Shown piece after piece: positions 3,421-36,700 of a stretch of DNA of 51,067 nt. The translations under genes were made by a program, and so were the position numbers. Within the stretch, counting starts at the first letter, position 1. Each line of letters starts with the position of its first letter. The notes beneath the pieces were generated by a model, which worked only from the letters and a program-made list of their open reading frames with translations, did not search any database and was not told where the DNA came from. This DNA is from Rhizaria sp. SCN 62-66 (lineage: Eukaryota): positions 1-51,067 of the forward strand of contig MEDY01000210.1 in assembly GCA_001724265.1 (NCBI GenBank), in the 5' to 3' direction.

Positions 3421-3685
3421 GCATTCGAAACTTAAATCATCCATCTTCACACACACTCCTATTGTGAAGTGGTGCTAAGTCGTTGCAACATGCCAGAAAC
3501 CAAACTCTTATCATTACCTCTACGTACGTACGTACTATTCATCTTGTCCTAGTCAGGACTTCAAAAATTGTATTATTTCAAAAATATTAGTTAATCAAGC
3601 TTCATAAACTAAGAAACACGCGTATATCTAATTTACATTCATTTCTACACTGAATAAAAAATAGCGCATCATTTCTGACACGGAT

Positions 3686-12713: not shown

Positions 12714-15700
12714 TTAGACCCAAGTCTTTTTGGGCGGCTCTGGCGCCTTCTTGGGCTCCACGGCCGCGCGCGCGCGCTGCGCCGCAAGCTGTGCCTCGAC
12801 AAGCGCGGGCATCTTCATGCGCTGTGGTTCGAATGAGCACTCCGCAAGCTCGCGCTGCTCCTTCTCGCGGCGTGCACGCTCCATCTTGCGCTCGCGCTCC
12901 GACACCTGCTCCTGGACGGAGTCCATGTAGCTGGGGTCGCGAACATTGCGCGCAGAGAGGTGAGACTCGTAGTTGGCCGCGAGCGCGCGCGAGGATGAGA
13001 TGAGCGTGGGCTGAAAGGTAACGGCTTCCATCTCACCGCGCAACTTGTCGGCGCGCCGCGCCTGCAAAGCGCGCTTCTGGCGGACGAGGTCGCCCGTACT
13101 CATGTCTTCGACGCTGCGGCGCGGAAGCTGCTGCGAGTACGGGGAGATGGCCGGCGCAAACGTCTCCTCGGCGTACACGGCGTGCTTGGCGGCCGCAATC
13201 GACGCCGCGGCGTGCTTCATCTTGACGCTCATGTCCACGCGTGAGTCGAAGTCCCCGGCGTGGCGCTCGGACCGCGCGACGATGCGCTCGGACTTGGGGT
13301 TCACGTAGGGCTGGCGCAGCTCCCGGTCTTCGCGCAGCTGCGACTGCAGCAGGTCGTCGCGGCGCTGCTGCACGGCACGGCCACGGTCGTCGATGCGGTC
13401 GAGCACGGCGCGGAACGACGGCGTGGGCTCCAGCGCGGCCGGGTCCACGGGCCCCTCGTCCGGATAGTGGCGCGCAAACAGCGCCGAGTCGAAGCGCGGC
13501 GCCGTGCCGTTGAAGGGCGCGATGCGCGGCGCCGGGGAGGCCGAGGCCATGCGGCGGCGCTGCGACGCGCTGTTGCCGCCCGTGTAGTCGTAGTTGGACA
13601 CGCTGGTGTTGTACGACTGGCCGTTGCCGCCCGAGAGACTGCCGCGGCGGGAACCTGCGCGCGAGCCGGAGCGGGAGCCGGGACGCGAGGACACCGAGGC
13701 GTCGAGGCCCACACCACGCGACAGCGCCTGCTGGCGCTGCTCCTGGCGCTCGGCGTGGCGGCGCGACGACATGCCGCCGCCGGCAGTGCTGCTATTGAGC
13801 GGGTACTGCGACAGCGACTGCGAACGCGACTGCGAGCGGCCCGCGCTTGCACCGCCGCTAGCACGGTTCTGCGCGTATGCGTCGTAGGCAGAGTAGCGGT
13901 TGCCGGCGCCGTTGGCGGGGCGGGACGAGCGGCCGTATTCGGCTGAGTCGTCGACGTCGTCGGCGTTGAGGTAGTTGCCGCGGTGCGACAACGACTGCCC
14001 GCGGTGGCCGTTGTTGCTGTTGTACGCCATCGTGGCGTTGGCAGCAAGGTCGGCCTCCGCGCCAGAGTCGTTGTAACGGCCGCTGCTGCGGGCGCTGCCA
14101 GTGCTGCGCACGCCCACAGCAAGGGGGTCGTAGCGCCGGGTCGTGGCAGCCGCGGCGGCCATCGATGCAGGCGGCGGGGCATACGCAACCTGGGCCTGCG
14201 CACCGCCACCGGTGTTGTTACCGTGGTCATCGGCGTTTGACTGCGACTGCGACTCCGGGTGCGGCGAGGCCGAGGTGGCGCGGCGGGCCTCGGACTTAAG
14301 CGCGCGGCGGGCGGCGTCAATGCGGTCCTGCGCGGTCGGCGAGCACACAGGCGTGCGGCGAGAGTGCTGGTGCGACGCGGGCGCTCTGCCGTCGTCGTCC
14401 TCGTCGTCGTTGGCGGCGCCGGTGTTGAGTGGCGGGGCGCGGTTGGGGTGCTCGCGGCGGGCGAAGCTAGTCAGCGCGGCCTCGGCCTCGGCCATGACGG
14501 CAGCGAGCGCCGCCAGCTCCGGTTCGTCCTCAGCGTTCGCCTCCTCGGACTGCGGCGGCTGTGAGGGCTCGCGCTCGCCCTCGCGGTCAGCGGCGTCGTG
14601 CTGCTGCTGGCCGACGGAGCGGAACCCACTGGCGCTGGTGCTCATGTTGCGCGGGCTAGGACTGGGACCGTTGCCGTGAGCTGAGTTGGGCGCGTTGGCC
14701 CCCGACGGGGAGCGCGAGAGCGAGCGCGTGAAGGCGGCGGCCTCCTCGGCGCACGACTTGAGCCGGCGGTGCGTGCGCTGGGCGCGCACGAGCTCAACGT
14801 CGATGTCAACGCCACTGTCGTCGACTGGGTTCGCGTTGGCGTCGGTGTGGCTGAGGAGCTGGTTGGTAGCGGCAGCGCAGTCACCGCCGTCGTTATTGCC
14901 GTCGTTGACAGCCACGTCGGCGTCATCGGCGCCGTTCTGGTCGATATTTGCGTCACTGCTGTTCTGCATAGTCGCAGCCAGCACGCCCGCGTACGAGTCG
15001 CCGATGTCGGCGTAGATGACGTCAGCATCGTCGTCATCGTACGCGTCGTCGTCACGACGCCGGTGCGACTGACGCTGCGATTGCGGCTGTGCCTGCGGCT
15101 GACGCACCTGGGTCTGCGCGGGGCGGGACACAGAACCACGGCGGCTGTCATTGGCACGCGACGTGTAGTAACGCTCGATATCGTCATCGTCAAGCTCGTC
15201 GCCATTTTGGTACTGCAGCTGCGGCGCCTGTGTGCCGTTGCGCGTGCGCGACTGCGACGACGCGCGAGACCGTGCGGAGCCAGCGCCGCCGGCGGGGCCC
15301 TGTTGCATGGCGAGCATCTTGCGTCGCTGCCGGTCCGCGGCCTCAAGCGCGACCGACTGCTGCGCCGCGCCGGGGGCGCCGCGCGAGCGCGAGCTGCTGC
15401 GGTCGCGAGCGCTGTACGGGCCCGCTGCGTTGCCGCCCCCGCCGTTGTAGTCGCCCATGCGAGAGAGGCTTGTGTTGTAGCTGTGGCCGCCTCCGGCGCC
15501 GCCCGTGGAGGACATGGGGCGTCCGCTGCGGTCGCGGCCGCGCGCCGTGGTGTTACCAGAGGGCTGGTGCGAGCGCCCGGGGGACTCGAGGGAGTAGTAC
15601 TCGGTGGCAAGCGCGCGGGAGCCGGTCATGCTGCCGCCGTTGCCGCCCATGACGGCACCGGGGCCGCCACTGATGCTAGCGGCGCGCGAACGCGAGCCGG

Positions 15701-18700
15701 CGCGCGACGCGGGCCGGGACCCGTTCCGGCCATCGTTGTTGTGGCCGTGGCCGTCGTCGTGGTGGAGCAGCGCACGCATGCTGTTGGACGTCCCCATGAG
15801 CGAGGTGCCGTGGCCGCCGCCGCGCGTGGTGGACGCGGAGCGCGAGCGCGCGCGCGTGCGGTTGGCGTCCTGCACGCGGTCCCACTCCTGGCGAAGCTCT
15901 TCCGCACTCTTGTACGGGCCGCGGCCGAAGCCGGTGCGCATGTACCGGCTCCCGCCCTTGGACGGTGTCGCACCGGCACCCAGCGCGCCCGTGGTGGTCA
16001 TGCTCACGCTCGTGTTGAGGCCGGCGTCGCGGCCGCGGCGGGTCGTCGAGGCGGACCGAGGGGCGCACATCTGCGGCTCGCCACCGGCAGCACCGCCGCC
16101 GCCCAGCTGCGGGTCGCAGTCGCCGTCCAGGTCGCCGCCGTCAGCGTGGTCGCCGCCCCGGGCGAAACGCGCGTCGAGCGCGGCCTCGTGCTCCTCCAGC
16201 GCGCTCTGGCGAGCGGCGGCGGTGGCGCGCGAGCGGGACGCCTCTCTGGCGCGCGCCATCTCGACCGAGCGCGCGTTGAGCTGCGGGCGGAACGTGCAGT
16301 TGCGCTCCTCTTCCTCGCGTGCCGCGGCCTCCTTTGCGGCGCGCATCTCGAGCACACGCTGCGTCGGCACGCGCGGCGCGAACAGCCGGCGGCGGGCCGC
16401 GGCGGAGGCCGAGAGCAGCTGCGCGTTGGCGCCACCGTGCTCGCCCGCCTCGTCGCCCTCGTCCGCGCCGTCGCCGCTGTTGTTGTAGGCGTACGAGGCC
16501 TGGTTCTGCGCGGCGGCCGCGTTGCTGGGCGTCATTGGCACCGGCTTGAACGGGTGTTCCTTGGCCCACGCCTCCTCCTGCTCGCGGCGCCGGTTGGCCA
16601 GCGCGGCCTCCTTTTGCGCGATGAAGGCGCGCTCGCGGTCGAGAAGCGCAGAGAAGACGGCATCGCGCTCGCGCACGCGGCTCTCGCGCGCCTCGCGGGA
16701 TCGGTCACGCGCCGACACCGTCGACGAGGCAGACGACGGGACCGCGCCGCGCTTGCTGGCGGGGTGGGACGCCGAGGCCGCGGGGGCCGGGACCGGGGCA
16801 AGCTCGGAGTGCTGCGGGTAGTAGCTGCTGGAGCTGTTGTCGTACGCGTTGGACGGCCGCTGGAACTGGTCGTAGTTGTAGGAGCTGTCGTCCTCAGCGT
16901 TGGGGCCTGGAAACGACTGCGACTGCGGGTGGCCGTGGCCGTGGCCGTGGCCGTGGCCGTGGCCGTGGCCGTGGCCATGCGACGCATACTGCTGAGCCTG
17001 AGGCTGCGGCTGCAAAGGATGGTAGCTGTTATCAGTGGGACCCATGGGATCGCTCTGATGCTGTGGAAACATGTGCTGCTGGTAGCCCGTGTCGCTCTCG
17101 CCGGAGAACGACGTCGTGTCGGCGTCCGTGCGGGGACGGCCGCGCGTGTAGCCGCCGCGGGGCGGCTGGTGCCTCACGCCGCTGCCCAAGATCGCGCCGA
17201 CTCCAACGCCGTGGCCGTGGCTGTGACCCTGGTCGTGGCCGGCATCGGCGATGGCGGCCGCGGCCGCGGCGCCGCCGAAGGAATTGCTGTTGCCGAGCGT
17301 GTGGTCGCCGTGGTGGTGCATCTGCGAGTGCGAGCGTGAGCGCGAGCGCGAGGTGGACGCCGGACTGTGATAATAGCGCCCGTCGCCCAGGTCGTAGCCC
17401 TCGTCGTTGGGTTCGGCGCCGAACTGGAGCGCGCGGAAGCTCTCGTTGGCGCCGGAGTCATTGTCGATAGCGCCACCGTCAGCGTTGTCGAGGTCGTTAT
17501 TGCCGTTCGACTGGGGGTCCGAGGACGAGGCGGGGAGGCTGCCATTGGCGCCGCCGCGGGTGCGCAACAGCGCGGCGGCGGCGGCAGCGGCGGCAGCGGG
17601 GGGGCGCAGACCGCTGCCACGGATCTTAGCGCGACCGTTGCCGCTGCCGTTGCTGCTCGCAGTGGGCGCGTTCTTCGCGTTGTCGCCGTGCTCGTTGACA
17701 GCAGCCGCGGGGCCGTTGGCCTCGCTATGTTGGTCGTTCTTGTCCCTCTGCTGCTGCTCTGAGAGGTCGATGTCGAGATCAAGGTCGCTGTAGTCGAAGT
17801 TGTCGACAGCAGCATGCAACTCCTGCGTGGTCATGCCCACGCCGCCGCGGCCATAGATGTCGCCGTCGTTGTTGGAGCTGTTGGCAGCGTCGGCAGCAGC
17901 GGCGGCAGTGACACCGGCGGTGGTGGCGAAAAGCAGGTTGTTCGCATCATACTCGTCGCCGCCCTCGTGACCGTGAACGTGGCCGTGCTTGCTGTGATGG
18001 GAGTCAGCAGCAGCAGCGTCGGCCTCAGCCTCAGCCTCAGCTTCGGCCTCGGCGCGCGAGTCTTCGTGGACAGCGCGCGACGGGCTCTGCAGCGTCCCGC
18101 TCGCAGGGCCCTTGCCCTTGACCTTCATCCCGTGGCCGTGACCGTGGGCGTCGTCGTGGGCGGCGTTGTTCGCGGTGATGTAGCCGGGCATGGGGGCGTC
18201 GCGCGGGGTGTAGAAGGCGCCGCCGTCGTCCGAAACTGCGTCGTCCTCAGTCTCACCGTGGCCGTGGCCGTCGCCGTGAGCGCCGTGAGCACCCTTTTGA
18301 CCCTTGTGAGCTTGAGTGGCGGAGACGCTGTCGTCGTGCGCGTCCAGGTCATGGATGTTGTTGTCGGCGATCGTGGTGCTAGCGGCAGCGGCAGACTCGC
18401 CGACGACGCCGCTCGCGCTCGCAGTGCTGCTCTCAACAGCAGCAGCATTGGCACCGTTGCTGTTGTTGGCGCTGGAACCGTTGGCGGCGGCGCTGACGAT
18501 GAGGGGCACATCTGTCTCGGTTACGCCGGGGGGGCAGTCCCAGGACACGGCAAGGGTTAGCGTGTGGAAGTAGTACGTGCGGCCCTTCTTGTCGATGGCG
18601 CGGCGCCAGAGCGTGTCGGCCGCGAGCGACGAGGGCGACACGGGCACACTCGCGTGGTGCGCGTTCGAGGGGCGCGCAACGTTCTCGCTCGCGTTCGCGC

Positions 18701-19079
18701 CGCTGCTACCGTTGTTATTGTGGCGCGAGCGAGCGGGCGTGGGGGCGACGGAGGGTGTGGACAGCGAGAGAGTCGAGGAGTCGGCCTCGTCGTCAGCGTG
18801 ATTATTGTTCTGCATCGACGACGACTGTGACTGCTGCTGCTGTTGGCGGGAGCCGGCGAGCGGGTGGCGCGGCGGGGAGGCGCCGATGGCCGCAGCGGAC
18901 AACGCGGGGGCAGGCGCAGAGGGCGAGCTGAGTGGGGATGCCGCCGCGTTGTTGTTCTGCTGCTGGCGCGGGGGCGCCTTGTGTGTGGTGTTAAAGAGCA
19001 TGGCATCCATGTCAACACCCCCGTCGTCGCCGTCGTCGGAAGCGGAGTCGAACGAGTATTCGCGGCGGTGCGAGGCCAT
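12714..19079 (-). CDS. Giant, largely disordered protein (about 2121 aa) with an N-terminal WW domain and repeated (C/T)xFxP motifs; possibly microtubule or basal-body associated
   Basis: WW: 'LWRRAIDKKGRTYYFHTLTLAVSWDCPPG' (~18530-18612). Repeats HPFKP, NCTFRPQLN, ETFAPAIS, VTFQPTL, ECSFEPQ, each after a charged helix. Ends TAA before AT-rich DNA. Confidence 0.8.
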   Translation of the reverse strand: MASHRREYSFDSASDDGDDGGVDMDAMLFNTTHKAPPRQQQNNNAAASPLSSPSAPAPALSAAAIGASPPRHPLAGSRQQQQQSQSSSMQNNNHADDEADSSTLSLSTPSVAPTPARSRHNNNGSSGANASENVARPSNAHHASVPVSPSSLAADTLWRRAIDKKGRTYYFHTLTLAVSWDCPPGVTETDVPLIVSAAANGSSANNSNGANAAAVESSTASASGVVGESAAAASTTIADNNIHDLDAHDDSVSATQAHKGQKGAHGAHGDGHGHGETEDDAVSDDGGAFYTPRDAPMPGYITANNAAHDDAHGHGHGMKVKGKGPASGTLQSPSRAVHEDSRAEAEAEAEAEADAAAADSHHSKHGHVHGHEGGDEYDANNLLFATTAGVTAAAAADAANSSNNDGDIYGRGGVGMTTQELHAAVDNFDYSDLDLDIDLSEQQQRDKNDQHSEANGPAAAVNEHGDNAKNAPTASSNGSGNGRAKIRGSGLRPPAAAAAAAAALLRTRGGANGSLPASSSDPQSNGNNDLDNADGGAIDNDSGANESFRALQFGAEPNDEGYDLGDGRYYHSPASTSRSRSRSHSQMHHHGDHTLGNSNSFGGAAAAAAIADAGHDQGHSHGHGVGVGAILGSGVRHQPPRGGYTRGRPRTDADTTSFSGESDTGYQQHMFPQHQSDPMGPTDNSYHPLQPQPQAQQYASHGHGHGHGHGHGHGHGHPQSQSFPGPNAEDDSSYNYDQFQRPSNAYDNSSSSYYPQHSELAPVPAPAASASHPASKRGAVPSSASSTVSARDRSREARESRVRERDAVFSALLDRERAFIAQKEAALANRRREQEEAWAKEHPFKPVPMTPSNAAAAQNQASYAYNNSGDGADEGDEAGEHGGANAQLLSASAAARRRLFAPRVPTQRVLEMRAAKEAAAREEEERNCTFRPQLNARSVEMARAREASRSRATAAARQSALEEHEAALDARFARGGDHADGGDLDGDCDPQLGGGGAAGGEPQMCAPRSASTTRRGRDAGLNTSVSMTTTGALGAGATPSKGGSRYMRTGFGRGPYKSAEELRQEWDRVQDANRTRARSRSASTTRGGGHGTSLMGTSNSMRALLHHDDGHGHNNDGRNGSRPASRAGSRSRAASISGGPGAVMGGNGGSMTGSRALATEYYSLESPGRSHQPSGNTTARGRDRSGRPMSSTGGAGGGHSYNTSLSRMGDYNGGGGNAAGPYSARDRSSSRSRGAPGAAQQSVALEAADRQRRKMLAMQQGPAGGAGSARSRASSQSRTRNGTQAPQLQYQNGDELDDDDIERYYTSRANDSRRGSVSRPAQTQVRQPQAQPQSQRQSHRRRDDDAYDDDDADVIYADIGDSYAGVLAATMQNSSDANIDQNGADDADVAVNDGNNDGGDCAAATNQLLSHTDANANPVDDSGVDIDVELVRAQRTHRRLKSCAEEAAAFTRSLSRSPSGANAPNSAHGNGPSPSPRNMSTSASGFRSVGQQQHDAADREGEREPSQPPQSEEANAEDEPELAALAAVMAEAEAALTSFARREHPNRAPPLNTGAANDDEDDDGRAPASHQHSRRTPVCSPTAQDRIDAARRALKSEARRATSASPHPESQSQSNADDHGNNTGGGAQAQVAYAPPPASMAAAAATTRRYDPLAVGVRSTGSARSSGRYNDSGAEADLAANATMAYNSNNGHRGQSLSHRGNYLNADDVDDSAEYGRSSRPANGAGNRYSAYDAYAQNRASGGASAGRSQSRSQSLSQYPLNSSTAGGGMSSRRHAERQEQRQQALSRGVGLDASVSSRPGSRSGSRAGSRRGSLSGGNGQSYNTSVSNYDYTGGNSASQRRRMASASPAPRIAPFNGTAPRFDSALFARHYPDEGPVDPAALEPTPSFRAVLDRIDDRGRAVQQRRDDLLQSQLREDRELRQPYVNPKSERIVARSERHAGDFDSRVDMSVKMKHAAASIAAAKHAVYAEETFAPAISPYSQQLPRRSVEDMSTGDLVRQKRALQARRADKLRGEMEAVTFQPTLISSSRALAANYESHLSARNVRDPSYMDSVQEQVSERERKMERARREKEQRELAECSFEPQRMKMPALVEAQLAAQRARAAVEPKKAPEPPKKTWV
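16929..16976 (-). repeat. Perfect hexamer repeat (GTGGCC)8 encoding a (Gly-His)8 tract
   Basis: Read directly; in frame in the 12714-19079 gene. Confidence 0.95.
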
Positions 19080-19879
19080 GGGGCAAAACAGCACGGGCGC
19101 AAGCGCGGAGCCAGGAAAAGCGCGAGTGCGAAGAAGAGGAACTGGAAAGCACGCGGCAAGGCGGGAGCTGGACGCTGTGCGGTGGCGGTTGGCTAGTGGT
19201 GAGAAAGGATGGGTGACGAGTTAAAGCTCGCTGAGGCAGGGTGAAACAACGAAGGAATAAAGCAGCGGTTGGTGAGAGCATATAAATTGAAGTAAATAAG
19301 CGGGTCAAGTTACGGCAGTCGTGAGTAGTGAGCGAAACCTGGGCTTTATGAGCCGAGAAAGAAAAATGGCAGACCAAATTAACAGCTTGGCCTGGGACTC
19401 AATACAACGCTTCATGTGATCCAGAATCATTGAGTATAACGAAACAAATGGGGAACGGTGCAGAAACCATGACGGCTCATCTTCAAAACCCGGAAATGAC
19501 TCTTCAAAACGTCGATGGGTTTCACTAATGCTTCAGATTACATCGACCTGAAGAAACCGCGAGGCTCGGGTCGCTGCAGTCGAGAGCGCCCGGCTTTTTT
19601 ACGAACCAGCCTGAGTGAACGTAACGACTCTCTGCTACTAGCCCCTTCTTTAGCAATCTGCAGCGAGCTCAGTTCTCCGTCAATACGAATTCTCCGATAG
19701 TTGCAATATGTCTATGATAAAATCTATCAAATTCACAAATATCATTTCTTACAGACTTTCCTCTTGCCATATCTGTTTAGTTTCCCAACCCCCCCCCCCA
19801 GCGACCGCTCCCAACCTCCATTTGGTTTTACCATTCGGAGACACTTGCTCAAGCCCATCAACCTCCCGGACCGTGTCCG

Positions 19880-22800
19880 ATGAGCCTCGCGTCCCTTAGC
19901 ACTGATGTTGCGCGGTTCTTTGACCGCGCGGTGACCCCCGAGCAATTGGAGCGCATGTGGGAAGCTGCCGACAATGACCACAGCGGCACATTGTGCAGTA
20001 CCGAGCTCAGCACACTCGTCAAGCCCATCCTCGCACAAGTCACCGCAGACTTTGCCGTCCGCGTCCGTGCGTTACTGAACCCGATTTCCTCTCTAACGGA
20101 CGAGGAAGCGGGCAAGATCGTTACGCGCATCGTCGACGAGCTCAACGCGCGTCCGCAAGCCGCGATTGTCACTTCTTTGTTCCGCGACATCGACAAGGAC
20201 CGCAGCGGTAGCGTCAGTAAGGCCGAATTTCTTTCCACCTTCAACTCTGCGCTCTCGCGCACGATGCTTATTGATTTTGACACCAACGCCGTCGTGCACC
20301 GCTACGTTGACCCGCTCATGGAGCTCGACATGGAGGCGCAGATGGCCGATCTCATGCTTCTTGACGACATCGCAGAGACGGTGGCGTCGGCCGGCGCGAC
20401 CGTGTCCGAGACGGGCGCGATCCACGTCGGCGACAAGGCCGCCGGCACGCTCAAGGATGTTGTGGCCAACACGCAGGAGGAGTTCCACGCCAAGAAGCGC
20501 CAGCTCATGGACGGCGGCGGCTCCACTGCTTCAAACAACGCTACCACAGGCGCGAGCGCGGGCGGCGCAGCTGTGCCGCAGACGCCTCTGCTGCAGGGCA
20601 ACAAGACTAAGATTAACTTGTTTGACCTAGCGCCCACATTGTCGGTGACCCCGGCGTCGGTTGCATTTGGCCCCGCTCCCACCCCAACCAGCGCCAGCGC
20701 CGCCGCGGCCGCCAATGCCACAGCGCCGTCAACCAGCTCTAGCTCCGGCAGCAACGTGCCGCTGCACGCGCTGTCTCTGCACACGGGCCATCCGCCGTCA
20801 CACAGCGCCAACACGGCCAACGGCAGTGGTTTGCTCTCGGTGTTGTCAGGCGCGCACGGCTCAACCGCGGCTAACGGCAACAGTCTCGCTACGACGCAGC
20901 CGGTCAGGGGTTCCCTGGCCCGCGGGTATTCGATGTTTTCCCCCACGAGCTCCATTCTTGCTCCCGCGAACGCAAGCATTGCTGTGGCTGGTGGGCCGCC
21001 TCCTGCCTCTCTTGGGGCATCGTCCGCCAGCCATGCCAGCGCAAACAGCGGCAACCTTAGCGGTGCTGGTCTGTCGCATCCGCGGTCGCTATCGACCGGC
21101 GTTGGCAACAGCTCAGTCTTTGGCCCGCTCAGCTTGAGCACCAACGCGAACAGCAGTAACCCGATGTCGCCGACTGGCGCGGGTGGCTCGCTGCACTTGC
21201 ATGGTCTGAACAACGGCAACGGCGACACTGCTACGAATAACACCACCTCGAACAATCCGTTCAGTCTCGGCGGAACTGCGTCTGGCACGGCAGGCGCCTA
21301 CACTGGTGCGATGCTGCAAGCAGATGTGAGCGATTTAGCTGCTGCGTTGGCTGCTGCTATCGGCGCAGCTGACAGTGGTGCGCTGCATAAATCACGCGCA
21401 AGCAACAATTACAACCACTACAACAGTGGCGCCGCGCTGCCCGCTGGCACGAGTCCAGTCTCTCCATATCCGAACTATAACATTAGTCCCAATGCGAGTC
21501 ATGGCATCAGCTCGAATCCATTTGGACAGCCGCAGTCACATATGCTGCACCATCAAACGCCGCAACCGCCTCAGCAACAACAGCAGCAGATGCGCGGTAT
21601 GAATGAAAGTGGTTACCGCATCGGTCCCTTGGGCGAGTACTTAGCCTACATCCCCACTTACACGCCGTCGCTAACAGCGGGCGCTGCGAGTATGTCACCG
21701 CCTATGACGCGCACTAGTCAGCCGATCACGTCGCAAGGTCACCCGCATCCGCATAGCGGCACTGCAACGACTCTGTTGATGCTGCCAAGTGCGAACAACG
21801 CCAATGACGACAACGGCCTCAATAACAATGCTAACGCTAACGCCAATACCAATCCCTCTCAGGAACGCGATGCAACAAATCATCCTCAACAACAACAACC
21901 GAGTCAGCATAAGTACTATACTGAGGCCGTTGCATCGCTGGAAAACAGCGGTGCTAAGTCAAAGGGTAACAGACCGAAGGGTGTTTCGACTGGGGTTGGG
22001 GCTGCGAATGATATCTTCACAACACCGGCTCACGGGCGCCAGTCATTCAACGCGTACAACGGCAACACCACACACGCCCAGAACAGCGCTAGTCGGAGCC
22101 GCCGGAAGAGTGGTGGCAACAGTATTCGTGACAATAGTCAGCGCGATCACAACAGCAGCCACAATATCAGTCACCGCGACCGTGACCGAGATCTCGATTC
22201 TGACCGAGACCGGAACCAGGACCAAGACCGTAAGCGTGAGCGCACTCGTGCAAATGCAAGGGTGACCACCTACGACTCGGCTATCTCCGACTCTGACCCT
22301 GACTTCGAGACGGTTGGGGACAGGGACAGCGGCAACCACAGCACTGCAGACAAGCATGCACTCCCTAACGCGAACAACAACAAGCATCGGCATCGCGACA
22401 ATGCAAGCGATGATTTGAACGCAAACGATGTCAATAGCAAGAGTGATTTGGACGCGAGCGCGCGCCTTGCTGCGAACATTGCTGGAGTTGAGCCCGCGCT
22501 GCTTGCAACTGCAGTCGACGCGTATCTTAAAACACGCTACCCGCACGTTCTCGCCCAGTCAAAGGGAGGCACTGCATCGCAGAAGTCTCTGGAGAACGAT
22601 GATAATAGCAAGGACGACGCTGTGAATGAGGTGACGCATGCGTCTCCCCGCAAGCAGAAGCATCAGCGGCAGCTCCAGCAAGCTCAAGAAAACAAGGAAA
22701 AGGAGAAGAACCACAATATCACCTTCACCGATACCAGTGCTACCGCGAGCAACATTGATGACGGTGATAATGCGTCCACCAGTGGTAGTTTGGATGAAAT

Positions 22801-25800
22801 CCGTACACTGCCTCAAGACGAAGTTCCGTCATCTGACAACGGCAACGCGCCAGAGGGTGTTGTTTCTGAGCCTGCAGCTGCATCAAACTCTGTTATGGCG
22901 AACAGTAGCACCAGCGAAGACAACACCGCTGAGACACCTGAGCCTGCTCAATCACAGTCGTTGTCGCCCGCGCAGTCACTCGCCCAGTCGCAGCCAATCT
23001 CCCAGGCTTCTCCGACACAGCCGCAGCCACAGCCACATGCATTGGGGCAAACTCTGCCCACGGTCAGCCACACCGGCACTCACCGCCACCGCCACCGCCG
23101 TGCCGTCGCTGCCGTCTCTGCCACGTTCACGCCCACAGTTGCGACGCCGGCCCCGCCGCCCGCTGCCGTTGCGCTGGCCGCGGCGCGTGCAACGGCTACA
23201 GCGCTGTTGCGTTTGTGTCTGCCGCACAGCAACAGTGCAAGCACTGCAGATCTAAGCGTTCCTTTAGATATGCCAGCAGGATGGCGCCTTGCAGCGGGGC
23301 CGTTGGCAAGGCTTGCGGCACTCGTGCCAACATACATCACGTCTTACGCCGATGCGCTCACCGCTCACAGTCAGCTCACCGCGGTCAATAGCTACAACCA
23401 CACGGACTGCAATCTCAGTACTCCCGGCAATCTAAGTGGTCGCAGCAATCGCTCTCATTGCCAGCTTCGCCCACAGCTTTCGCCGCCGCCGCGCTCTCAC
23501 CCCACGACCCCTTACACCAGCAACGCAGGTACTAACGCGGGTAAGGACCTCGGCACTCCCCGCGATCACCTTGCGGTGAGCGCCCCGTCAGTCAGCGCCC
23601 CCGCTGTCGACCCATCCGGTCTCTTCCTGCCTTTCTCCAACGCGCGCAACGCCCTGTCCCTGCGCCGCCGCTGCGACGCTCTCCGGACCGCACTTGTCGC
23701 TGCCTCTGCCAGTATGGCGCGGGCGACAACGCTCGCGGTGTTGGCCGCACTGGCGCCGGCTGTGGCGGCGGCGACGACCGCGACTGCTGCAGGGTGCAAC
23801 TCGCACCCACGGTCGCGGTCGCAGTTGCAGTCTGGATCTGCAGCAAGCAACAGTGCAAAGGAAAACCGCGGCAATCGCCGTGGAGCGCATCGGGTTGCTG
23901 CTGATGGTGGTTCTGACTCGGATACCTCCGGTTCGGATGCGAGCTGCGACTCTGATGACAGCGACGACGAGGGCGACAGTGCTCAGACCGAGACAAAAGA
24001 CACTGCCGCTGAAGCTGTGCGGAAAGCGCTGGCCCGCGTGCGCGCCGCTGCAGCCGCTGAGGAGGAGACAGCTGCCAACGCGAGTGTTGACGGACTTGGG
24101 GCTGCAGGTGCGGCGCACACTGAGGCTGCGCTGTCGCACCTTGCGGCACTCATGCTCACAGCTGCTGCGACGAACAACAACAGTGCAGATGGTAGCGCGA
24201 GTGCAAGCGATAAAGCTAAGCCGCGGCTTACGTTCCAGTCGTTTCTCGCACGCGTCACACTGGCGCTCGCAACACTGCACGCGAACACGCATAGCCAGTC
24301 TAGTGCGAGCAAACGCACTGCTCATCATAATGACAGTGGTCGTGAGCAACAAGTTCCGCTTTTGCTTTTCTCAGAACCTTTGTCTGCCGCTGCTTCGAGC
24401 GCTACTGCGGCGCCGCACGCTGTGCTTCCGCTGCCGCTGTGGACTCTCAAGGGCGACGCCCTGCACTCGGCAGCGCTCTCCCGCTTGCCGCATGCAGCGG
24501 CTGTTCTCCGGACGCTGTCTGCACCCCGCGCAGGCTCAAGCACACACGTGGTTTTGAGTGAAGCGACGGTGGCGTCCCTTGTGGTCCGCGCAGCTGCTGT
24601 CACGGTTGCCGAGTCGTTATTGTCGCCGTGGTTTCCTCCTTCTGTCATTCCGCACAACATCAGCAGCGACAAGCTCAACACCAGCCGCGGCCGTGACGCG
24701 AATTGCGCTCTTGTTGGTGCTGGTGCTGGCGTCGATGGCGCGTCGGTTGGTTGGTCTCTCTGGCTGCCCCCGAACGCTGCGGCCGCCGCCGGGACGTCTG
24801 CCCCTGCATTTCTGCGGCCGTTGCTCTCAGCCCCATTGTTGGCTCCAGTGTGGACAGCTTCCGCGGCCGCTGCGCTGCCCGGTAAGCTTGAGGTCGCTCT
24901 TGACAGGGCGCTGAGGATCAGCATTGGGACTGATAATGTTGCTGACATTAGCAGCAGCAGTAAGAATGACGCCAGTATCGTTACTGAAACCATGAGTCGT
25001 GCCGCTGTTGAGGCTGAAAGTGCCTAGCAGCGTCGGTTTATGGCTGGGCTTGCTAAGGTTGTTGCAGCTGTGGCTAAAGGTGAAGGGTGTCAGCTGCTGT
25101 TGCAGCAACAGCAAGAGCAGGAGCAGACACGTGCGCTGAGTGATCGTGAGCAGCGGGCACGAGCGAAGGTGGCGGCTGATGCGGCTGCCAACACAATGTA
25201 TGGTGTGTCGTCCACGTTTAAAAATGACAACGAAAATCCTGCTAATGACGGCAATTGCGACGTTAAGGATAGTGACGACGATGATGATTTGGCAAAAGCG
25301 CTTGCCAGTGGTCTCTGTATTTCCCTTCGTGGCAATCACAACGCAGGCAGTGACAATGGCCGTCTGAACAGCGGTGCATATCGCACTCCTAACGGTGTTC
25401 CTAATCACCACGATAGCAGCACACGTCCTCGCTTTATCAACTCTGATTCCGACGATGAAGTCGGTGTAGGGTCTGGCTCTGACTCTGATACGACTGAGCT
25501 TGCTCTTACTGCTGCAAATGCGCTCGCGAAACAGCAAAAGCGTGTGCAAAAGCAGAAACTCGCGCATGGTGATGATCATATCCGTGACAACTTCACATAC
25601 TCATTGAGTGGTAGTCTTGACCAATCTACGTATTCTGCCCAGTATAAGGGCCCCCGTAAGACCTGGATTGGCCACACCCCGCTACCTGATAGCCCCGGTG
25701 GACGCGCTGTCACGGCCTACACCAGGCCTCGTCTAAGTACCCACGTGAACGAAAATGCGGATGATGATGTGAATAATAACGATGCGCTCGTCGTTGCTGC

Positions 25801-28702
25801 GGCTGTCTCCGCTGCTGCTGCGTCGCGCGCAGTGCTCGCTATCACTCCAGACGGTCGGCTGACGACGAAGCGAGGCGTGATCACCAGGACTGTCTCGTTT
25901 GCTCCCAATCACTCAACGAGCAGCAATAGTAACAGACACGGCGGCGTGCTGCGTGGTATCGGGCACACGCCTGTTGCGGCCACACCCGGTGTCGATAACA
26001 ACGGCAATGCTGCTGACGCCAATATCACTCTCACGGTTAGTCGAAATACCACCGGCGTCAACGGCTCGACCGCGCCTCGCACTGCAACTGCAACACCAGC
26101 TGCGAACAGCAAGAGCATTAACGGAACTACGACTGTCAATGGCAACGGAAACAGTGGTAACGCTGCGGTCGCAGTTGCTGTTGCCGACGCTCGAGCACTC
26201 GCAACAACGGTGCGTTCAAAGCCCCAGCGTTCTTCCAACACCAATGGCCAGACTGTCAACAAAGACGCTCGGGCGATTACACCGGTTGGGCAGTTAGATC
26301 TCTCCGCCGCGTCATCGTCGTCAGCGTTGCTTCCCTCACAGTCACAATTGCTGTCGCAACCTCTGTCGAGGCCACCACCACAGCAGCAGCAACACGGCAC
26401 TCAACGCGCTGCCACTGCTGCGTCATCCGCCTTTACTCGCTCTCACCCCACCATTGCAAACACCACATCGCATGGTGTTAACGCGCCTCTGCCCCGTGGC
26501 TTCTCGTCGTCAGCTCGCGCAGCCCCTCTGCGCCGTCCGCACGCGCTGCTCTCAGCGTCTACAACTGCACCCGCACTCCCCCGCATCGCTCCTATGGGCG
26601 GCAACGCGCGCCAAGAGGCAGGCTCTCCTCACACGACAGGTATTGCAGCAATGCTCGGCCGGACGAGCGCTGGTGTCTTAGCTGCCATTGGCCTCAGTGG
26701 ACTCAGTCGCGGCCTTACTTTCGCTGAAGCAGAGGCTATCTACACTCTCTATTCAGACCCGACAGACGCGATTCCTGGTGGATCTCAGCAGAGTACGCCC
26801 TTAGAATTAAGCAAGAGTGGTCTGTCTGTGTATGCTGTGAAGCGTTTTGCTGAGGACCTCGCGACTGTGGTCTACTTACACTTCGCGGGAGTGCTTACAC
26901 GTGCGCGTATTCCGCCGCCTGCTGCGGACATCAACAAGAGCAATGCTGATGTTGCGTTTCATAGCGACGCTGTATTCGCCGAGTCCGCACAGTTCCTCCC
27001 GTCAGAAGTACCGTTTTACCCTTCTCTAGCGGCGGTGCTTTTCTCGCCAACTGCACTTCAACGCATTGCCCTACTTCTTGCACCGACTGCACTCGCACAC
27101 GGCCACCTCAACAACGATCCTGCGTGCCCGCTGCCGCCGTCCGCGGCCGCCGCCGCCCGCCCTGCTGCCCCCGCGCCCGCCGCACTGCGGTCCTCGCTCG
27201 CATCGCGGCAAACATTCACTTCGCATCACATCATCTCACGCCTCGCCTCTGTCACTAGCACCACTGCCGAAGCTCGCGGGAGCGCCAGCAGTGGCGCGGT
27301 GACGGTGGGCTCGGTCGCGCTTGATCTGATGCTCATGCTCGGTCCCCTGTGCCGCCGCGCAGTCACTGCGACGGCGGAAAATCACTGGCGCTCTTCGGAC
27401 GCCACGCTCGCCGCCACCACCGCTACTATGGCCGGGGCGGGGGACATGCTGGGCGAGGACCAGCGCAAAGCGCGTGAGCGCGCGCGCAGGCTGTTGCTCA
27501 CGTTGCTCGGTCGCTTGGGACCGGTCCCGGCCACTGCGTCTGCCCCCGCTTCAGTTGCTGCACCTGTGCCGGTGGCGACGCAAGCTGTGGCCGTTGAGGA
27601 GGTGCAGCGTGCCAGCGAGCCGATCGAGGTGCCCGAGCCCGAGCCCGAGCCAGCGCCTGTCGCCGACCTAACTGAAGACCGCAGTGATGAGAAGCAGAGA
27701 CGCAGTCAGAGTGAGAGCGACAGTGAATATGACGACAGTGAGGACCGCGAGGTCAAGCCTAGGGGCGGCTTGTTTTCCATTCACGCGCACAGTCACTCTG
27801 GCAACAACGGCGCCGCCGAACTCGCACAAGCAGCCGCCGAGGAAGGCGCACGTCTGGCGAACCTAGCACTAGCGCTTGCGCGGAAAGATGAAGCTGATGC
27901 TAAAGCGCGCCGCCTTGCTGCTCTCAACGCTGCTGCCGCCGGCCTGTCCGGCGGGCTCAATGACCGCGAGCGGGCGTACAACGAGTGGGTGCAAGAGCGT
28001 GAGAGGGAGATCGCACGCGCCTTGAAGCATTTGTCGCGTATCGTTCGTAGCGCTTGGGTTGTCAATGCCAAGCAGCAACAAAACGTGCTCTTGGATTACA
28101 ACGCCAACGCTCCTGAGCAACGAGAGGGTAGCTCAACTTCTATTAAGAACGGCCCTAAGAGTGGCAGTGCTGCTGCTAGCGGTGCTGCCTCTGTTCAATC
28201 TCTGTGGTCTGACCCCCGCGTTGGCGCGATTGATCCCCGCGACATGCGTGTATTGTCCACCGATAAGGACATTGTATACGTCAAGGGCACGAACGACAGC
28301 AAGAACAATGAGTTAGAAGCAGCGCTGAGCGATGTTAGTAACTTGGCGCAGAGTCTAAGTGCAGGCTCGAGCGATCAGCTCTCCGCTGCGGCGACGCTGG
28401 CGAAGCGTCTCGTGCTCGCCATGCGTGAATCTGGACTGGCGCCTATCTGGGGCCTTGCGGACTCCGCTGTCTCGAACAACGCCGACGGCAGCAACGCCGA
28501 GAATGATGGTGACGGTGCAGCGAGGCGGCGCAGGGGCAAGAAGCATTGTGACAGCAACTCGGATGGTAGAAAGGGGTGGTGGCGCGCGGTGAATGGGCGG
28601 TTTAAGCTGAGTGAGATCCCGCCGTTGGCAGCCTCGTACGGTTACCCGCCGTTCGAAATCGTGCTCAAACAGAAGACATTACAAAACAAAAATGATTCAT
28701 AA
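19880..28702 (+). CDS. Giant EF-hand protein, modelled as one gene of about 2940 aa with a single in-frame TAG at 25025-25027 (alternatively two ORFs, 19880-25027 and 25040-28702)
   Basis: Two canonical EF loops near the N-terminus (DNDHSGTLCSTEL, DKDRSGSVSKAEF). The two ORFs share a frame (offset 5160 = 1720x3), joined by GCC TAG CAG CGT CGG TTT ATG with no AT-rich spacer. Final stop is TAA. Confidence 0.7.
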
Positions 28703-29110
28703 GCGAGTGAGTGCTGTGGTGGAAAGACACAAACCAGTGGATATCTCGAGATGTCGCAAGTACATAGTTTGAATTGAATATACATAGGATATATACCGTG
28801 TTTAAATACCGCATACAGAATGAACTAATCTAGTCCAATTTGTTTATTCTGCGTTTCAAGTCGCTTTATCTATTTTATTGTCCAACCAAAACGGAAGTTG
28901 CCCCTTGTCCGTCCGAACTTCGAACTTGTTAAATGAGTCAAATACGATATACTCTAACTGTCGCGAAGGTGTTTACAAATGCTCTGACAATATTGGTGTA
29001 TTGTCTAGTTAATTTTATTTTTAGTATCTCCTTATCAATTGATTTCATCGCAAAATAACTCAATAACTTATCATATCCCGACTCACGTCTTCGTCGTTCT
29101 TCCAGGTAGG

Positions 29111-30965
29111 ATGCCGTCGCCCTTCCCACGTCGTATCCTGCTTGCCTTGGCGGTAGCACTGCTTGCCAGTGCTGCTCATGCGTTAGCCTCTGTGGACCCT
29201 GTCCCGTGGCGTGCCCCTAAGCTGTCACATCTGACGATGTCGTGGGAGCGTCCCGACTCGCTCTTCTTCTTCAAGATGCCGTATCACACCCTCAGCTACA
29301 AGCCGCCTACTGCTTCGGAGCCTGCATCTCTCACTGAGCAGACCGACGCTGAGGGCGCCGAAGACGGCAACAAGAAGGCCCGCGCGGTGTTTATTATCTT
29401 AACTGATGAGTTCCAGCGCCTGGACGCCTATGCCGAAGTGCAGAGCCACTTCTCTGCTGTCCTCCAGCAAAAGTACGCCGCCACTGTGTACTACCTGCCC
29501 TTGCGCGGTTACCACGGCGAGACAACCCTGAACCCTCACGTGCGCGCGCAACTGACTACGGAGAACTCGATTGGTGATGTTCACCAGTTCATCACCACCG
29601 TCGCCAACCCGAAGGGCAACAAGAAAGTCGTACGTCACGCTCCGTCGCTACTTGAACAATGCATTACGGAGTGTTGATCGACACTAATCTTCCGGACTCG
29701 ACACAATAACGCATTTCATTGTAATATGTAGGTTATGTCTCAAGTTGTACTTTGTATCTCCTCACTAACTCTGTATAACAATGCACTTTCTCTTTTGCTT
29801 TTCGTTTGTTTCTATGGCGCACCTTTGACAGGTTCTCGTTGGAGCTGGCCACTCCGGCACAATCGCCGCCCTGTTCCGCGTGGCGCACCCCGACCTCACC
29901 GTTGCCGCCATTGTCGACACCCCGCAGCTTTCTGCGGCCGCGCAGTACGACATCTACGCGTGCTCCGCCACGTGGCCGATGATGGCAGACCCGTTTTGCA
30001 TGGCCAATTGGATCAACGCCACCGAGTCCCTCGCACAGAAGCTCAAGACCGAAACACCGCGGTGGATTGCCAAGAAGCTCAATCTCTGCGCCCCCATCAT
30101 CGATGACAGCGCCACTGCGCTCACGCCCGCGCTCCTCGGCGGTGGCTTAACTTTCGACGCGGCCGATGTGCCGTACACGATGAGCCCAGAGCAGCACGGG
30201 TTCCTCTGGCACTCCCTGGTGAACCCGATTGTGCGCACGTTTAATACGCAGTTCACATCTTCCATCACGGCCTCGGGGGCCGACAAGCCGGTGCCGGTGC
30301 CGTACGCGAGCTACAAGTCCGTCTGCAAGGCGCTGCAGGACGGCGGGCTGACTCCGATCGACGTGCTGGGGGACATCTTCACTAAGACACGCGAAGGCAA
30401 GTGCGTTGAGGGCCGGTTGAAGGAGTGGGCGCAGGGGCGCGTGCACGCCAGTGAGCAAGTAGTTATGGCGCGTGCATGCCTCGAGTGGCAGCGGTTCAGC
30501 GTTGGCCTCCCGACTAACCCTGACAGCGACAACGATGCTGAGTTTGCCAAGTTTGCGCGGGAGAACAAGCTGTCGCCGAATGTTGGCAACAATTTTATTC
30601 CTGACATGACCGACATCACCATGCCGCTGTTCAACTCTGTGTGCACCACACTGCTCGGCGACGAGTTCACGCTAAAAAACGCACAGGCCAATGCGGATGC
30701 CCTTAAGGAGAAATACGGTGATCACAAGAGCTACAAGGGCACCAACGTGTTTGCAATCGCAACGCAGTACGACTCGTTCTACCTCACGTCGCTGATTCGC
30801 CATGCCGGTGAGTTCGACACGAGCGTGCAGCTCTTCACCTCGAACTACCACATGCGCGGCGCCGCTTTCCGCATCCGGGCGCTGCACGACACGGCCGAGT
30901 TGGCGGACCTGCGTCGGTTCATGGAGCAGTTCCTTGACGAGCACCTTCTTGGGAAGAAAATGTGA
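29111..30965 (+). CDS. Second secreted S28-like alpha/beta-hydrolase, probably inactive; exons 29111-29629 and 29832-30965, about 550 aa
   Basis: Signal-peptide-like start MPSPFPRRILLALAVALLASAAHA. Splicing restores 'KKV|VLVGAGHSGTIAALFRVAHPD'. Shares 'YxPLRG', 'LTT', 'LDTP/VDTP', 'NLC', 'WHSL', 'CLE', 'YxGxNVF' with the 1816-3420 gene. Confidence 0.8.
29630..29831 (+). other. Spliceosomal intron, 202 nt, phase 0
   Basis: GTACGT...TTTGACAG; AT-rich, CACTAAC branch-like site near 29764, pyrimidine tract; removal restores the frame. Confidence 0.9.
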
Positions 30966-32239: not shown

Positions 32240-33667
32240 ATGGACTTCCGCGCCCCCACGGAAGTGGCCCCGCAAAGTGCGGCGCTGTATGCGGTCCTGT
32301 CAGACCAACAGCACCAGCAGCTCATGCTTCAGCAACAGCAGCAGCAACAGCAGCAGCAACAGATACTTGGCTTTGGCGGCAGCCAGCTTGGCGTCCCCAC
32401 GCAGCAGCAGATTTTGCAGCAACAACAGCAGCAGCTGTACTATCTCCAGCAACGGCAACAGCAACAACAGCATCAACAGCAACAACAGCTCAACACTGTC
32501 GCGATGCCCGTTGCACTCTCATCATCACCATCCTCCTCGTCATCGGCGTCGTCATCGCCCAACACCACCAACAACATCAACGGCAACAACACCGTCGTTT
32601 CCGTTACGGGCCCCGTCTTCTACGACATCCCCACTCTGGCCGCCGCCGCCGCCGCCGCCGCGCTCTCCAGCGGCGCCTCTGCCACTGCCTCCGCCTCTGC
32701 GTCCACTCTCTCCGTCTCGGCCTCGGCCTCGGCTTCCGCGGCGGCCTCGGCGGCGGCGTCCGCGGCGCACTCGACGGCGAGCAACAGCGGCAACATCAAC
32801 ACACTCGCGCTCACCGGGAGCGGCATGAACAACGCCAGCAGCAACGGCGACCCTTACGGCCCCAGTCAAGTTGGACCGAGTCCGGTGTACTACCCCCTCG
32901 GCACGCCCTCGCCCACCCAGAACCACAGCAACAACAACGGCGCGATGGCTGGGATTGCGGCGGCGAGCCAGCAGCACTTACAGCAGTTGCAGCTGCAGCA
33001 ACAGCAACAGCAGCAGCTTCAGTGGCAGCAGCAGCATCAGCAGCAACAGCAGCAGCAACAGCAGCAACAGCAGCAGCAACAGCAGCAACAGCAGCAGCTG
33101 CAGCTTCAGCAGCAGCAACAACTCCAGTACCAGCTTCAGCAGCAGCAACAGCTGCAACAAGCCGCTGCCGCTGCTGCCGCGGCCGCTGCCGCAATGCATG
33201 CCAACGCCAACGCTCTGCCTCCTCCGGACAAGTCTATCAACGGCAGCGGCAACGGCAACGGCAAGAAGGCTCGCGCGTCGAACAAGACGTCTCGCCACAG
33301 CAACAGCAACAACAGCAACGTGAGCACCAGCCGCACGCGCGCTGCCGGCGCGAACGGCAACGACGCCAAGACCGGCAGCGACGACGCCGACGCCGACGCC
33401 GACAACGCTGCCGCCGCCCACAGCCACAGCGGCGGCGCGCACCCCGGCATGGGCACGAACCCGCGCCCCGGCGCGAGCTCTGCCGCCGGCGGCGCCGAGG
33501 CGGCCGAGACGGCCGAGGAGGAGGCAGCACGCAACCGCGAAGTCGAGGGCATTCCGCTGGCGCTACTGTCGTCGGCGCGCGGCAGCCACAACAGCGGCAA
33601 CGGCAAGGGCAAGCACAACATGAGCCAACAGCAACAGCTTCAGCAGCTGCAGATCTTGCGCCAATCT

Positions 33668-33715
<48 letters not shown>

Positions 33716-36700
33716 CAGGACTTTGGTATGTTTGGTTTCAACGGCTCGAACGCATTTGGCCATAACGACTCGTTCTTCTTTTCCAACGAGGCTGCCGCTG
33801 CTGCCAACGCTGCTGTCGCCGCAAGCAACACCAATGGCAATGGTAACACTGGCGGCAGCAACAAGAGCCGCAGCCACGGCAAGAGCAACAGCAACAGCAA
33901 GAACAAGAACAACGCCGCCCTCGCGAACAACAACGGCGACATCAACAACGATCTCACCGACATGTTTGCCCCGATCAACTCCGCCCCGTCCTCGGCCGCC
34001 CTCACGGCTGCCGCCTCCGCCGCTGGCGCGGCCGGTGGGAACCAGGGGACTTCGCCGACGCAGACGATGTTCCCCAACACATACCCGTTCTCCTCGCCGT
34101 ACTTCTACTCGCAGTCGCAGTCGCCGTCACATCCGCACTCACAGACGCAGTCGCCCGCGCAGGCACACGCGCACATCGTTGGGCAGAGTCCGTACAAGAA
34201 CCCGTACTATGTGTCGCCGTCGCAGTCGTCGCAGCAACCGCACCAGAATACGAGCGCGTTCACAAACAGCAACGGCCATCACAACAACGGTGGCAGCAAG
34301 CACAACATGCAGCAGCAGCAGCAGCAGATGCTGGGTCAGAACAACGGCATTCACGACTCAGGGACGAACACTGCTGTCGGCGGCGGCGGCCACGGCGGCG
34401 GCACTCAGCCGCTGTTCATGATGCCCTCTCTGCTGGACTTGCCACATGGCCACACACAGGCGCTGGACCTCATCGACAGCGCGAACCTGGGCGACAACGG
34501 CAACACGCTCGCGGGCGAAATCGGGCCCCACGCGGATGACAACAACGCCGACGACGGGCCCGGCGCCACGGGCATGGTGGGTAGCAACGGCTACCGCCAC
34601 CTCGCCAGCAACAGCAACAGCCACAACAACTACAACGGCACTGCTGGCAACACGGCGAACAACACCAACGACAACAGCAACGGGACAAACTTCAACCACT
34701 CACGCAGCGCCTACAACGCCGCCGCGCTCGCCGCCGCCGCGGGCGCGTCGCCGGGCAAGGCGTGGCTGCTGCACCGGCGCTACTGCGCGCTGCTCACGGT
34801 CATGTCCGTGATCGCGTTCGCCATCTCGCTCTACGCCATCGCCTCCATCTCGGTCGAGGCGGCCCCGCGCACGCTCTACGGACCGCAGTTCCGCACGGGT
34901 TTTGCGGCGACGCAGATCTCGTCCGACAACGCGATCAACGCCGAGGCGCTGGCCTCCAACGCGGCGGCCGTGGCATCAACGCGGCTCATGGGCCACTCGC
35001 TCATGGTCTCCAAGGACGGCCTGCCTTTTTTCGCCACCATCTCGTACCCGACGTACAGCCTGTTCGCCGTGCGCTGCAGGGACATTTTGTGCCAGGAGTT
35101 CTGGTCGCGGCAGATCGACACCGAGCAGGGTGACACGGTTACCACGGACACAGGCTCCAAGAGCTACGTCAGCGACGGGAGCATCACCAATGAGCTCGTG
35201 CCTGCCACGGGTGGCGCGGTCACCGGTGCAGAGAGCGTTGTGGCCACTCAAAGCTTTGCTAGCGCGAGTCTGAAGGCGAGTGCCGTTGTTGCCAACGTGG
35301 TTGATACCATGCGTGCGGGTCTTATCAAGAGCAATGTCAACGTTTACACTCTTGCTGCCACTGCCGCGACAGATTCTGCTTTGGCCAAGAAGCTGCATAC
35401 AATCACGAACGCTGCTTACTCTCACATGCAGCAGCTTCAGAGCGCTGGGTTGAAGACTGCGACCAAGAAGAGTGCTTCACCCAGCTCCCAGTCGGTGTCG
35501 TCACAGTCGTCCTCGTCGTCGTCGTCACTCGCGTCTGTAACGGCGTTGACCGAGAAGGCGAGCTCGTGGCTGCGCACCCGTATCTCCGCGTCCCTCGCCT
35601 CGCTGGCCGTTTTCTCGCCGTCTGCGGCCGCGATTGACACTGAGAGCGCAGTTGATACTGGTGATTCTGCTGACGCCGATGCTGATGATGACATTGACGC
35701 GCGTGCCGGCCGCCTGCTCGCAGTCTTGCTCACTGAGCGTGCGCAGCAGCTCGCCGCAATCACTCTCAGCAACAACAACGCCGAGGGTCTCAGCGCCGAC
35801 TCTACGTCGGCGTCTAAGCTCCCACTGGCGCGCACGGTGGGCGCCCTGCCGTTCTCGACTCGCCCGCGCTCGCTGCCTCCGCCGCCGTCGCTAACCGCGG
35901 CGCTCACCTACCACGGTTTCGCGGCCGAGGGCGACAAGAGGGCTGTCTCTGTGCTCGCGAGCGTCGCATACGGTCTCAAGCAGACGCTGCGCACCAATGC
36001 GAACGCGAACGTCAACACGAACACTGCGATGGCGACTGCCTCTGTTGAGAGCGATGCCGTGACTGAGACTGAGCTGAGCAGTGAGGAGCAGGCGACGACC
36101 GTGCTCGACCTCCTGTTCTCTCTCTTGCCCGCTTCTTCTATTCTCGCCACCAGCAACACCAACGGTATGCAGGCTCAGTCCAAGAGCGGTGAGAATGCGG
36201 TGGGCATATACGACGACGTGGCGCAGTCCTACGGTGAGTCTCTGATCTCGTTCGTGCCCCCGTCTCAATCCGCGGCTGCGTCGGATCGTGCCACGCGCAC
36301 TCAGACTCTCCAGGACCTCGTGGGCGACGTCGCCTTCGCCGCTTCTGCCTCTGCATCTGCGTCTGTTGAGGCTGCGCCCAAGCGTGACTTGTTCACTTCA
36401 CTCAGCGAGAAGCTTCACTCGAACTCCCGCGCTAGCTTCAGCTCGAGCTCGAGCTCCAGCTCCGACTCGAACGCTGGTGACTTTAAGACTACCGTTTCGG
36501 TCTCGACCTCGATCCTGGTCCCCATCACCCGCGCCCTGCTGGCATCGACGGGCTACCCCATCATCGCCTACACGACGACGACCAACGACCTGTACCTCAC
36601 GCGCTGTGTCTCGATGGGCTGCGGCCGCGACACAGTCACCTCGTACTTGTCGACCCACGTCGCGATGCCTAGCATGGACATGGCCCTAGATCCCCTCGGC

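Follow-up and report, generated by a model that had tools for sequence, protein, structure and literature searches.

The DNA considered here is a stretch of 51,067 nucleotides (nt), contig MEDY01000210.1 of the Rhizaria sp. SCN 62-66 assembly (GCA_001724265.1), which is eukaryotic DNA from the metagenome of a bioreactor or wastewater sample; we call the whole stretch the window, and all coordinates are counted within it. It carries two very long open reading frames (ORFs) on the forward strand that share one frame and are separated by a single stop codon. The upstream ORF (19880..25024, + strand) runs for 1715 codons from the ATG at 19880 to an in-frame TAG (25025..25027, +), which stands in the context GCC-TAG-CAG-CGT. 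Past the TAG the same frame is open for 1224 codons (25028..28702, +) and closes with a TAA at 28700-28702. The first ATG after the stop (25040..25042, +) follows it by 12 nt (CAG CGT CGG TTT), and a product that starts there has 1220 residues, in the frame of the upstream ORF. Re-deriving the layout from the letters gave what the preliminary description of this DNA had reported, namely ORFs of 1715 and 1220 residues parted by TAG CAG CGT CGG TTT, within a frame of about 2940 codons in which this TAG stands alone: translation of 19880-28702 takes 2941 steps and meets one internal '*'.

This configuration is unique in the window. Counting both strands, 37 stops are flanked by 100 or more open codons in both directions, and only the TAG at 25025-25027 by more than 1000, the stop-to-stop lengths being 1748 codons upstream and 1224 downstream. 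The runners-up (884/140, 557/162 and 236/322 open codons) are all shadow frames over other, GC-rich genes. Since stop triplets make up about 3% per codon, a chance origin of 1224 open codons is excluded. The genes of the window are GC-rich and have AT-rich spacers between them; at the nine other gene boundaries that were measured, these spacers have 265-1352 nt and a GC content of 0.34-0.50, in agreement with the earlier statement that every other boundary has at least about 260 nt of AT-rich sequence. At the TAG there is no such spacer, and GC is 0.52 over the 100 nt on either side. Composition had been said to be unchanged across the stop, which holds for GC and also for the coding score, given below. 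The two ORFs are part of one transcription-unit-like stretch.

Contigs of four runs (X3, X4, X5 and X9) were placed on positions 19000-29500. X4 belongs to another study and another year, the samples being dated 2015 and 2025, and it behaves as DNA, because its contig reaches across the AT-rich intergenic region between divergent genes with a depth like that of genes. The site itself (25025-25040) is covered by X4, while X3, X5 and X9 have no contig there. The relevant X4 contig (record 13) spans 24792-25918 and is identical at the TAG, although 7 of its 1127 positions differ from the window (24860, 25040, 25179, 25267, 25286, 25545 and 25566). In addition, an identical 1715-residue product (P0001) is recorded from three contigs. 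A base-call or assembly error is thus unlikely, since the TAG is kept in an independent contig and its product is found on three; the presence of the stop on two haplotypes makes a rare, private nonsense allele unlikely too. As far as contigs show, the TAG is a genuine codon of the genome, common to two haplotypes. The preliminary description had named a nonsense allele or a base-call error as its alternative: the error is now unlikely, whereas a nonsense codon has become at least as likely as readthrough.

The second haplotype also tells something about constraint. X4 has 14 substitutions in 24197-27153, 11 nonsynonymous and 3 synonymous, in a ratio of 3:2 before the TAG and 8:1 after it, where the neutral expectation is 74% nonsynonymous. 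For the 9 differing sites of the tail, the ratio of nonsynonymous to synonymous polymorphism (pN/pS) comes to about 1; the sample is small, and every difference is backed by a single contig, of depth 4.6-6.5. These differences match unconstrained sequence, and the strain variation looks neutral. They are clustered: the 14 fall within about 3.4 kb around the TAG, whereas the preceding 4.4 kb (19000-23439) has at most one and a stretch of 755 nt towards the 3' end (27873-28627) has none, which looks like a diverged haplotype block within one gene. One of them turns the ATG at 25040 into GTG (A>G, Met to Val), so that this ATG is not a conserved start. A 2-nt deletion at 23100, seen in one X4 contig, was taken as foreign and discarded; it falls in a GC-rich, (CACCGC)n-like tract (23083-23135) that draws foreign contigs and reaches an inflated depth of 21-22 in X3 and X5, and the contig with the deletion is probably from another organism. 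Contig joints such as 21593 to 25101 were likewise put down to repeat or foreign matches, as they lie in CAG-type repeats and have sides of 21 nt.

The preliminary description had proposed that UAG is decoded here. As an organism-wide property, this is not supported by the codon counts: the ten coding stretches that the window has besides this gene show no TAG in 9563 codons, and about 12,500 codons in all contain a single in-frame one. The gene at 19880-28702 has 69 CAG, 41 CAA and the one TAG, and the other genes have 387 CAG and 65 CAA. UAG-only reassignments are known, among them those of Iotanema spirale and of a rhizarian (PMC5304391). The present case is like these codes in that UAG occupies an expected sense position, but such a code would put UAG in many genes, and here it is found once. 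A sense reading of UAG can draw on the terminators, none of the nine accepted ones being TAG (TAA 5, TGA 4), a zero that is not significant at n = 9; the ORF at 47575-48618, which apparently ends with TAG, has that stop inside an intron. No tRNA gene and no Rfam family was found in the window. Genome-wide reassignment of UAG is unlikely, and the stop usage of the organism is otherwise normal. Sense decoding and an error in the assembly or sequencing, taken jointly, appear very improbable to us. What survives of the original proposal is decoding restricted to this one site, that is, readthrough.

A TAG could also be removed from the mRNA by splicing, and introns do occur in this genome. Three were inferred: one in a peptidase S28 gene (29630-29831, +), where the next exon matches the S28 profile from its first residue, and two in a leucine-rich-repeat gene (48580-48691 and 49165-49298, both +), where the flanking exons match LRR_6. 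The ORF at 47575-48618 continues into this leucine-rich-repeat gene, which has several exons and leaves the window. All three introns have a GTACGT donor, a length of 112-202 nt, a GC content of 0.33-0.41, a T content of 0.36-0.49 and 70-72% pyrimidines in their last 40 nt. None of the 26 matches to GTACGT in the window lies in 19880-28702, on either strand. Because the three inferred introns are all T-rich with GTACGT donors, and the gene has no such donor, a standard intron over the TAG is unlikely.

A non-consensus spliceosomal intron would be another matter, and 203 pairs of GT and AG span the TAG at a distance divisible by three, with the frame still open. The frame is preserved by candidates such as 24960-25067 (108 nt, GTAAGA...TTGCAG) and 24882-25067 (186 nt); by chance alone, an intron of 108 nt with one in-frame stop is unremarkable. 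On this point the preliminary description was half right: the donors GTAAGC at 24882 and GTAAGA at 24960 are indeed in phase 1 and do not allow an in-frame join to 25027 or 25030, but it missed frame-keeping acceptors further on (the CAG ending at 25067). Its remark that there is no pyrimidine tract stands, for the candidates have 45-50% pyrimidines; with GTAAGA, GTAAGC or GTGTGG as donors, a GC content of 0.52-0.56 and a T content of 0.23-0.27, they are unlike the three inferred introns. The polymorphism at 25040 does fall within a candidate intron. A contig of polyadenylated RNA from X9, however, is unspliced through the donor at 24882, up to 24916, and no joint at the candidate coordinates appears in the four runs, with 24917-25090 not covered by RNA contigs. 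It is because of this interval that we keep such an intron as an explanation at all, albeit an improbable one.

The upstream protein is mostly low-complexity or rich in Ala, Ser, Asn and Gln. The sole recognised domain of head and tail together is a pair of EF-hands near the N-terminus (residues 21-121; 19940..20242, +), matched in Pfam by EF-hand_1 (2.6e-07, 30.1 bits with the cut-off at 25.4) and by EF-hand_7 (7.5e-07, 29.9 bits, marginally below the cut-off of 30), as in EF-hand calcium-binding proteins. Look-alikes of the head in the Atlas were generic EF-hand clusters, every one scoring below 0.9, and the tail gave no Pfam family and nothing usable in the Atlas. When the whole read-through protein (the TAG written as X) was used in a word-indexed search, only the 1715-residue self match came back among 8000 scored candidates, the low complexity having swamped the search, and the N-terminal 210 residues found only themselves among 2070 candidates. 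The same was true of tail residues 21-1220 in a HMMER search against 1.84 billion representatives. In metagenome scans, a 400-residue piece around the junction had 597 pattern matches, none of them confirmed, and the N-terminal 210 residues had 370 pattern matches, of which two were weak hits (38% over residues 16-84) that we take as chance matches, one of them on an 8.4-kb contig whose other ORFs look phage-like. The two ORFs are not paralogous to each other by BLASTP (best E-value 1.4).

The codon usage of the gene is also unlike that of its neighbours. The GC content at third codon positions (GC3) is 0.64 in the upstream ORF and 0.59 in the downstream one, against 0.69-0.86 in nine neighbouring ORFs, and its codons score about 0.1-0.4 each for codon usage, where two large neighbours, both of them part of the training set, average about 0.52. 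Since neither part has a homologue in the protein searches and metagenome scans, a fast-evolving, dispensable orphan fits.

The reading that we favour, with a probability of roughly 40%, is that the TAG truly truncates the protein, whether or not it leaks a little, and that the tail has not yet decayed. The arguments for it are the neutral-looking polymorphism, the low GC3, the lack of homologues and the base rates known from elsewhere. Indeed, pairs of same-frame ORFs split by one nonsense codon, either strain alleles or young pseudogenes, have been catalogued in yeast, and surveys there attribute most single stops between same-frame ORFs to plain nonsense alleles. The yeast pairs resemble ours in having one stop at the DNA level between two long ORFs of one ancestral gene, with an open tail, and the neutral-like polymorphism matches too. 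They differ in that a sense codon at the site was not seen here in any allele or orthologue (the one other haplotype also has TAG), and in that the stop is present on two diverged haplotypes, in studies dated 2015 and 2025.

Under truncation, the locus would have been a single ancestral gene of about 2,940 codons, and structurally it would still be one. The nonsense codon would have arisen in an EF-hand protein that is specific to its lineage and under weak constraint, and would now be common or fixed. The TAG would act as an ordinary terminator and yield the 1715-residue protein, leaving the 1224-codon tail as a young, undecayed relic in the 3' part of the mRNA. As the terminator seems a weak one (UAG followed by C, in a CAG codon), a small fraction of ribosomes may run on, and this leak is possibly the reason why the mutation was tolerated. 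That the TAG terminates translation, that it arose recently and that it leaks are all three inferences.

Several observations weigh against truncation, and most of them bear directly on a competing explanation, programmed readthrough. First, the TAG is older than the split of the haplotypes, since it is shared despite 14 differences nearby, one of them 15 nt away. By a rough estimate, a neutral tail would have a chance of about 10-30% of staying open in both haplotypes since that split. Second, the tail looks like a coding sequence. It has no further stop or frameshift over its 1224 codons, its GC content stays above the 0.34-0.50 of non-coding DNA, the coding frame scores highest in 29 of 29 windows of 100 codons across both ORFs, and the score per codon around the TAG (0.236, 0.237, 0.246, 0.235) shows no step. 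Third, polyadenylated-RNA contigs of X9 lie at 24528-24916, 27645-27952 and 28440-28635, that is, on both ORFs. The tail thus seems to be present in polyadenylated RNA, and an mRNA with a 3.7-kb post-stop tail does not seem to be visibly eliminated, with DNA carry-over as a possible source of these contigs. Finally, the base after the TAG is C and the codon after it is CAG, and a predicted RNA hairpin (25049..25115, +) begins 22 nt past the stop. The nine accepted terminators of the window are followed by a purine in eight cases and by C in none.

Programmed readthrough is well known from Drosophila kelch, in which a UGA separates two long ORFs and two products are made. Transferred to our gene, it would mean that the UAG has been selected as a recoding site through its context and the hairpin: one mRNA would give mostly the 1,715-residue EF-hand protein and, in a regulated fraction, a product of 2,940 residues carrying the 1,224-codon extension, with a near-cognate residue (typically Gln, Tyr, Lys or Trp) inserted at the UAG. 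The two genes share the two-ORF architecture, the very long extension and the absence of a spacer, and our gene likewise has a weak terminator context and a predicted downstream structure. The stop is UGA in kelch and UAG here, and the extension here shows no purifying selection in a small sample. That the TAG is kept on both haplotypes while the ATG at 25040 is not speaks for readthrough and against a separate start, and so do the 1224 open codons with an unbroken coding-frame signal and the 12 nt between ORFs where spacers of other genes are many times longer. The 8:1 excess of nonsynonymous differences in the tail speaks against it, with no purifying selection visible on the extension, and no orthologue was found that would show conservation.

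The sequence context of the stop is ambiguous in the same way. Favourable contexts for readthrough have AA before the stop, and here the two bases are CC. On the other side, the type I signal is UAG-CAR-YYA (PMC3542737), and our CAG after the UAG matches CAR, so that the C at the fourth position and the CAG amount to the first half of that motif. The second codon is CGU and does not match YYA; moreover, the type I signal belongs to tobamoviruses, while the putative one here is in a cellular protist gene. The hairpin is open to a similar objection, as the distance from stop to structure given in PMC3542737 is about 8 nt, not 22 nt. The 120 nt after the stop fold at -49 kcal/mol (z = -2.35), and 6 of 200 shuffled sequences fold equally well. 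Among 580 windows within the gene, this fold ranks 9 after GC correction and 65 without it. Competing local folds exist, which are not significant themselves, and no Rfam recoding element was found in the window. A single-sequence AlphaFold model of the 400-residue piece places the stop site (residue 216) within one helix (residues 199-232); this agrees weakly with a continuous protein, given a mean predicted local distance difference test (pLDDT) score of 47.

Readthrough as a selected recoding site therefore draws on a stop that predates the haplotype split with an open, coding-like tail, on the unconserved ATG, on the missing spacer and on the weak context with its hairpin. We consider it doubtful, though a close rival of truncation. 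The two explanations fit the data nearly equally well, and they overlap, because a leaky context would ease the tolerance of a nonsense codon.

Two products could also come from two transcripts, the upstream gene ending at the TAG and the tail being expressed from an internal promoter and a later ATG. The ATG 12 nt past the stop lends itself to this explanation, and gene callers do predict a protein of 1220 residues from it (P0002); the coding signal of the tail is kept, and the tail has its polyadenylated-RNA contigs. That ATG is GTG in X4, however, and the next in-frame one lies about 52 codons further on, at about 25196. The missing AT-rich spacer is equally at odds with two separate genes, in view of the at least 265 nt at each of the nine other boundaries, and a shared frame with one intervening stop would be a mere coincidence under two transcripts. 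We hold this arrangement to be improbable.

A last way around the stop would be A-to-I editing at 25026 under some condition, changing UAG to UGG (Trp) as in filamentous ascomycetes, and here the neighbourhood of the gene helps. The window contains a single-exon gene for dynein regulatory complex protein 1 (DRC1; 8815-11361, -), identified by Pfam NYD-SP28 and by DRC1 chains in the PDB at 1e-78. Its best relative among 5.8 billion proteins is 42% identical, so that the host is a flagellate without a close sequenced relative. To our knowledge, filamentous ascomycetes have no flagella, and a host with a flagellar DRC1 this far from any relative is not one of them. The U at position -1 that such editing prefers is present, trivially, as in any UAG, while the A of the TAG is base-paired in three of three local folds (z from -0.3 to -1.2), not in a hairpin loop. 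The ascomycete precedent invoked in the preliminary description therefore does not carry over, and we regard editing of this kind as very improbable.

The DNA comes from a deep-branching flagellate of wastewater or bioreactor samples that is not in culture. A kinetoplastid host was considered and rejected: DRC1 scores about 268 bits to its top three PDB chains (8j07, 9fqr and 7ju4) and 171 and 168 bits to 9e5c and 9y6s, entries which we take to be from human, Chlamydomonas and trypanosome, and the window has introns.

Whichever explanation holds, the site is real, it is stable across the studies of 2015 and 2025 and it is not evidence of a new genetic code. If there is only truncation, this is ordinary early gene decay in an orphan, and a caution for gene calling on metagenomic protist contigs. 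Should the UAG be read through, the gene would be an uncommon example of a very long readthrough extension in cells outside animals and fungi, found in an environmental protist, and UAG-CAG with its hairpin would be a usable natural reporter context for termination efficiency. If the UAG is a true recoding site, its extension would rank among the longest known from cellular readthrough, and this in a lineage of which no close relative has been cultured or sequenced.

The rest of the window offers some minor observations. Two diverged paralogues of serine carboxypeptidase S28 lie 26 kb apart (1696-3420 and 29111-30965, both +), and the second of them has a signal-peptide-like N-terminus and one intron. 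Very long intron-less ORFs of 1315-2126 residues are found at 12714-19094 (-), 32240-37963 (+), 42706-46653 (+) and 3686-8416 (-); they are rich in poly-Q, poly-A and poly-S, and the only domains in them are a weak WW match and HEAT repeats. Short palindromic (GTAC)n runs occur in two of the AT-rich spacers (260-276 and 3522-3535) and supply 9 of the window's 26 matches to GTACGT.

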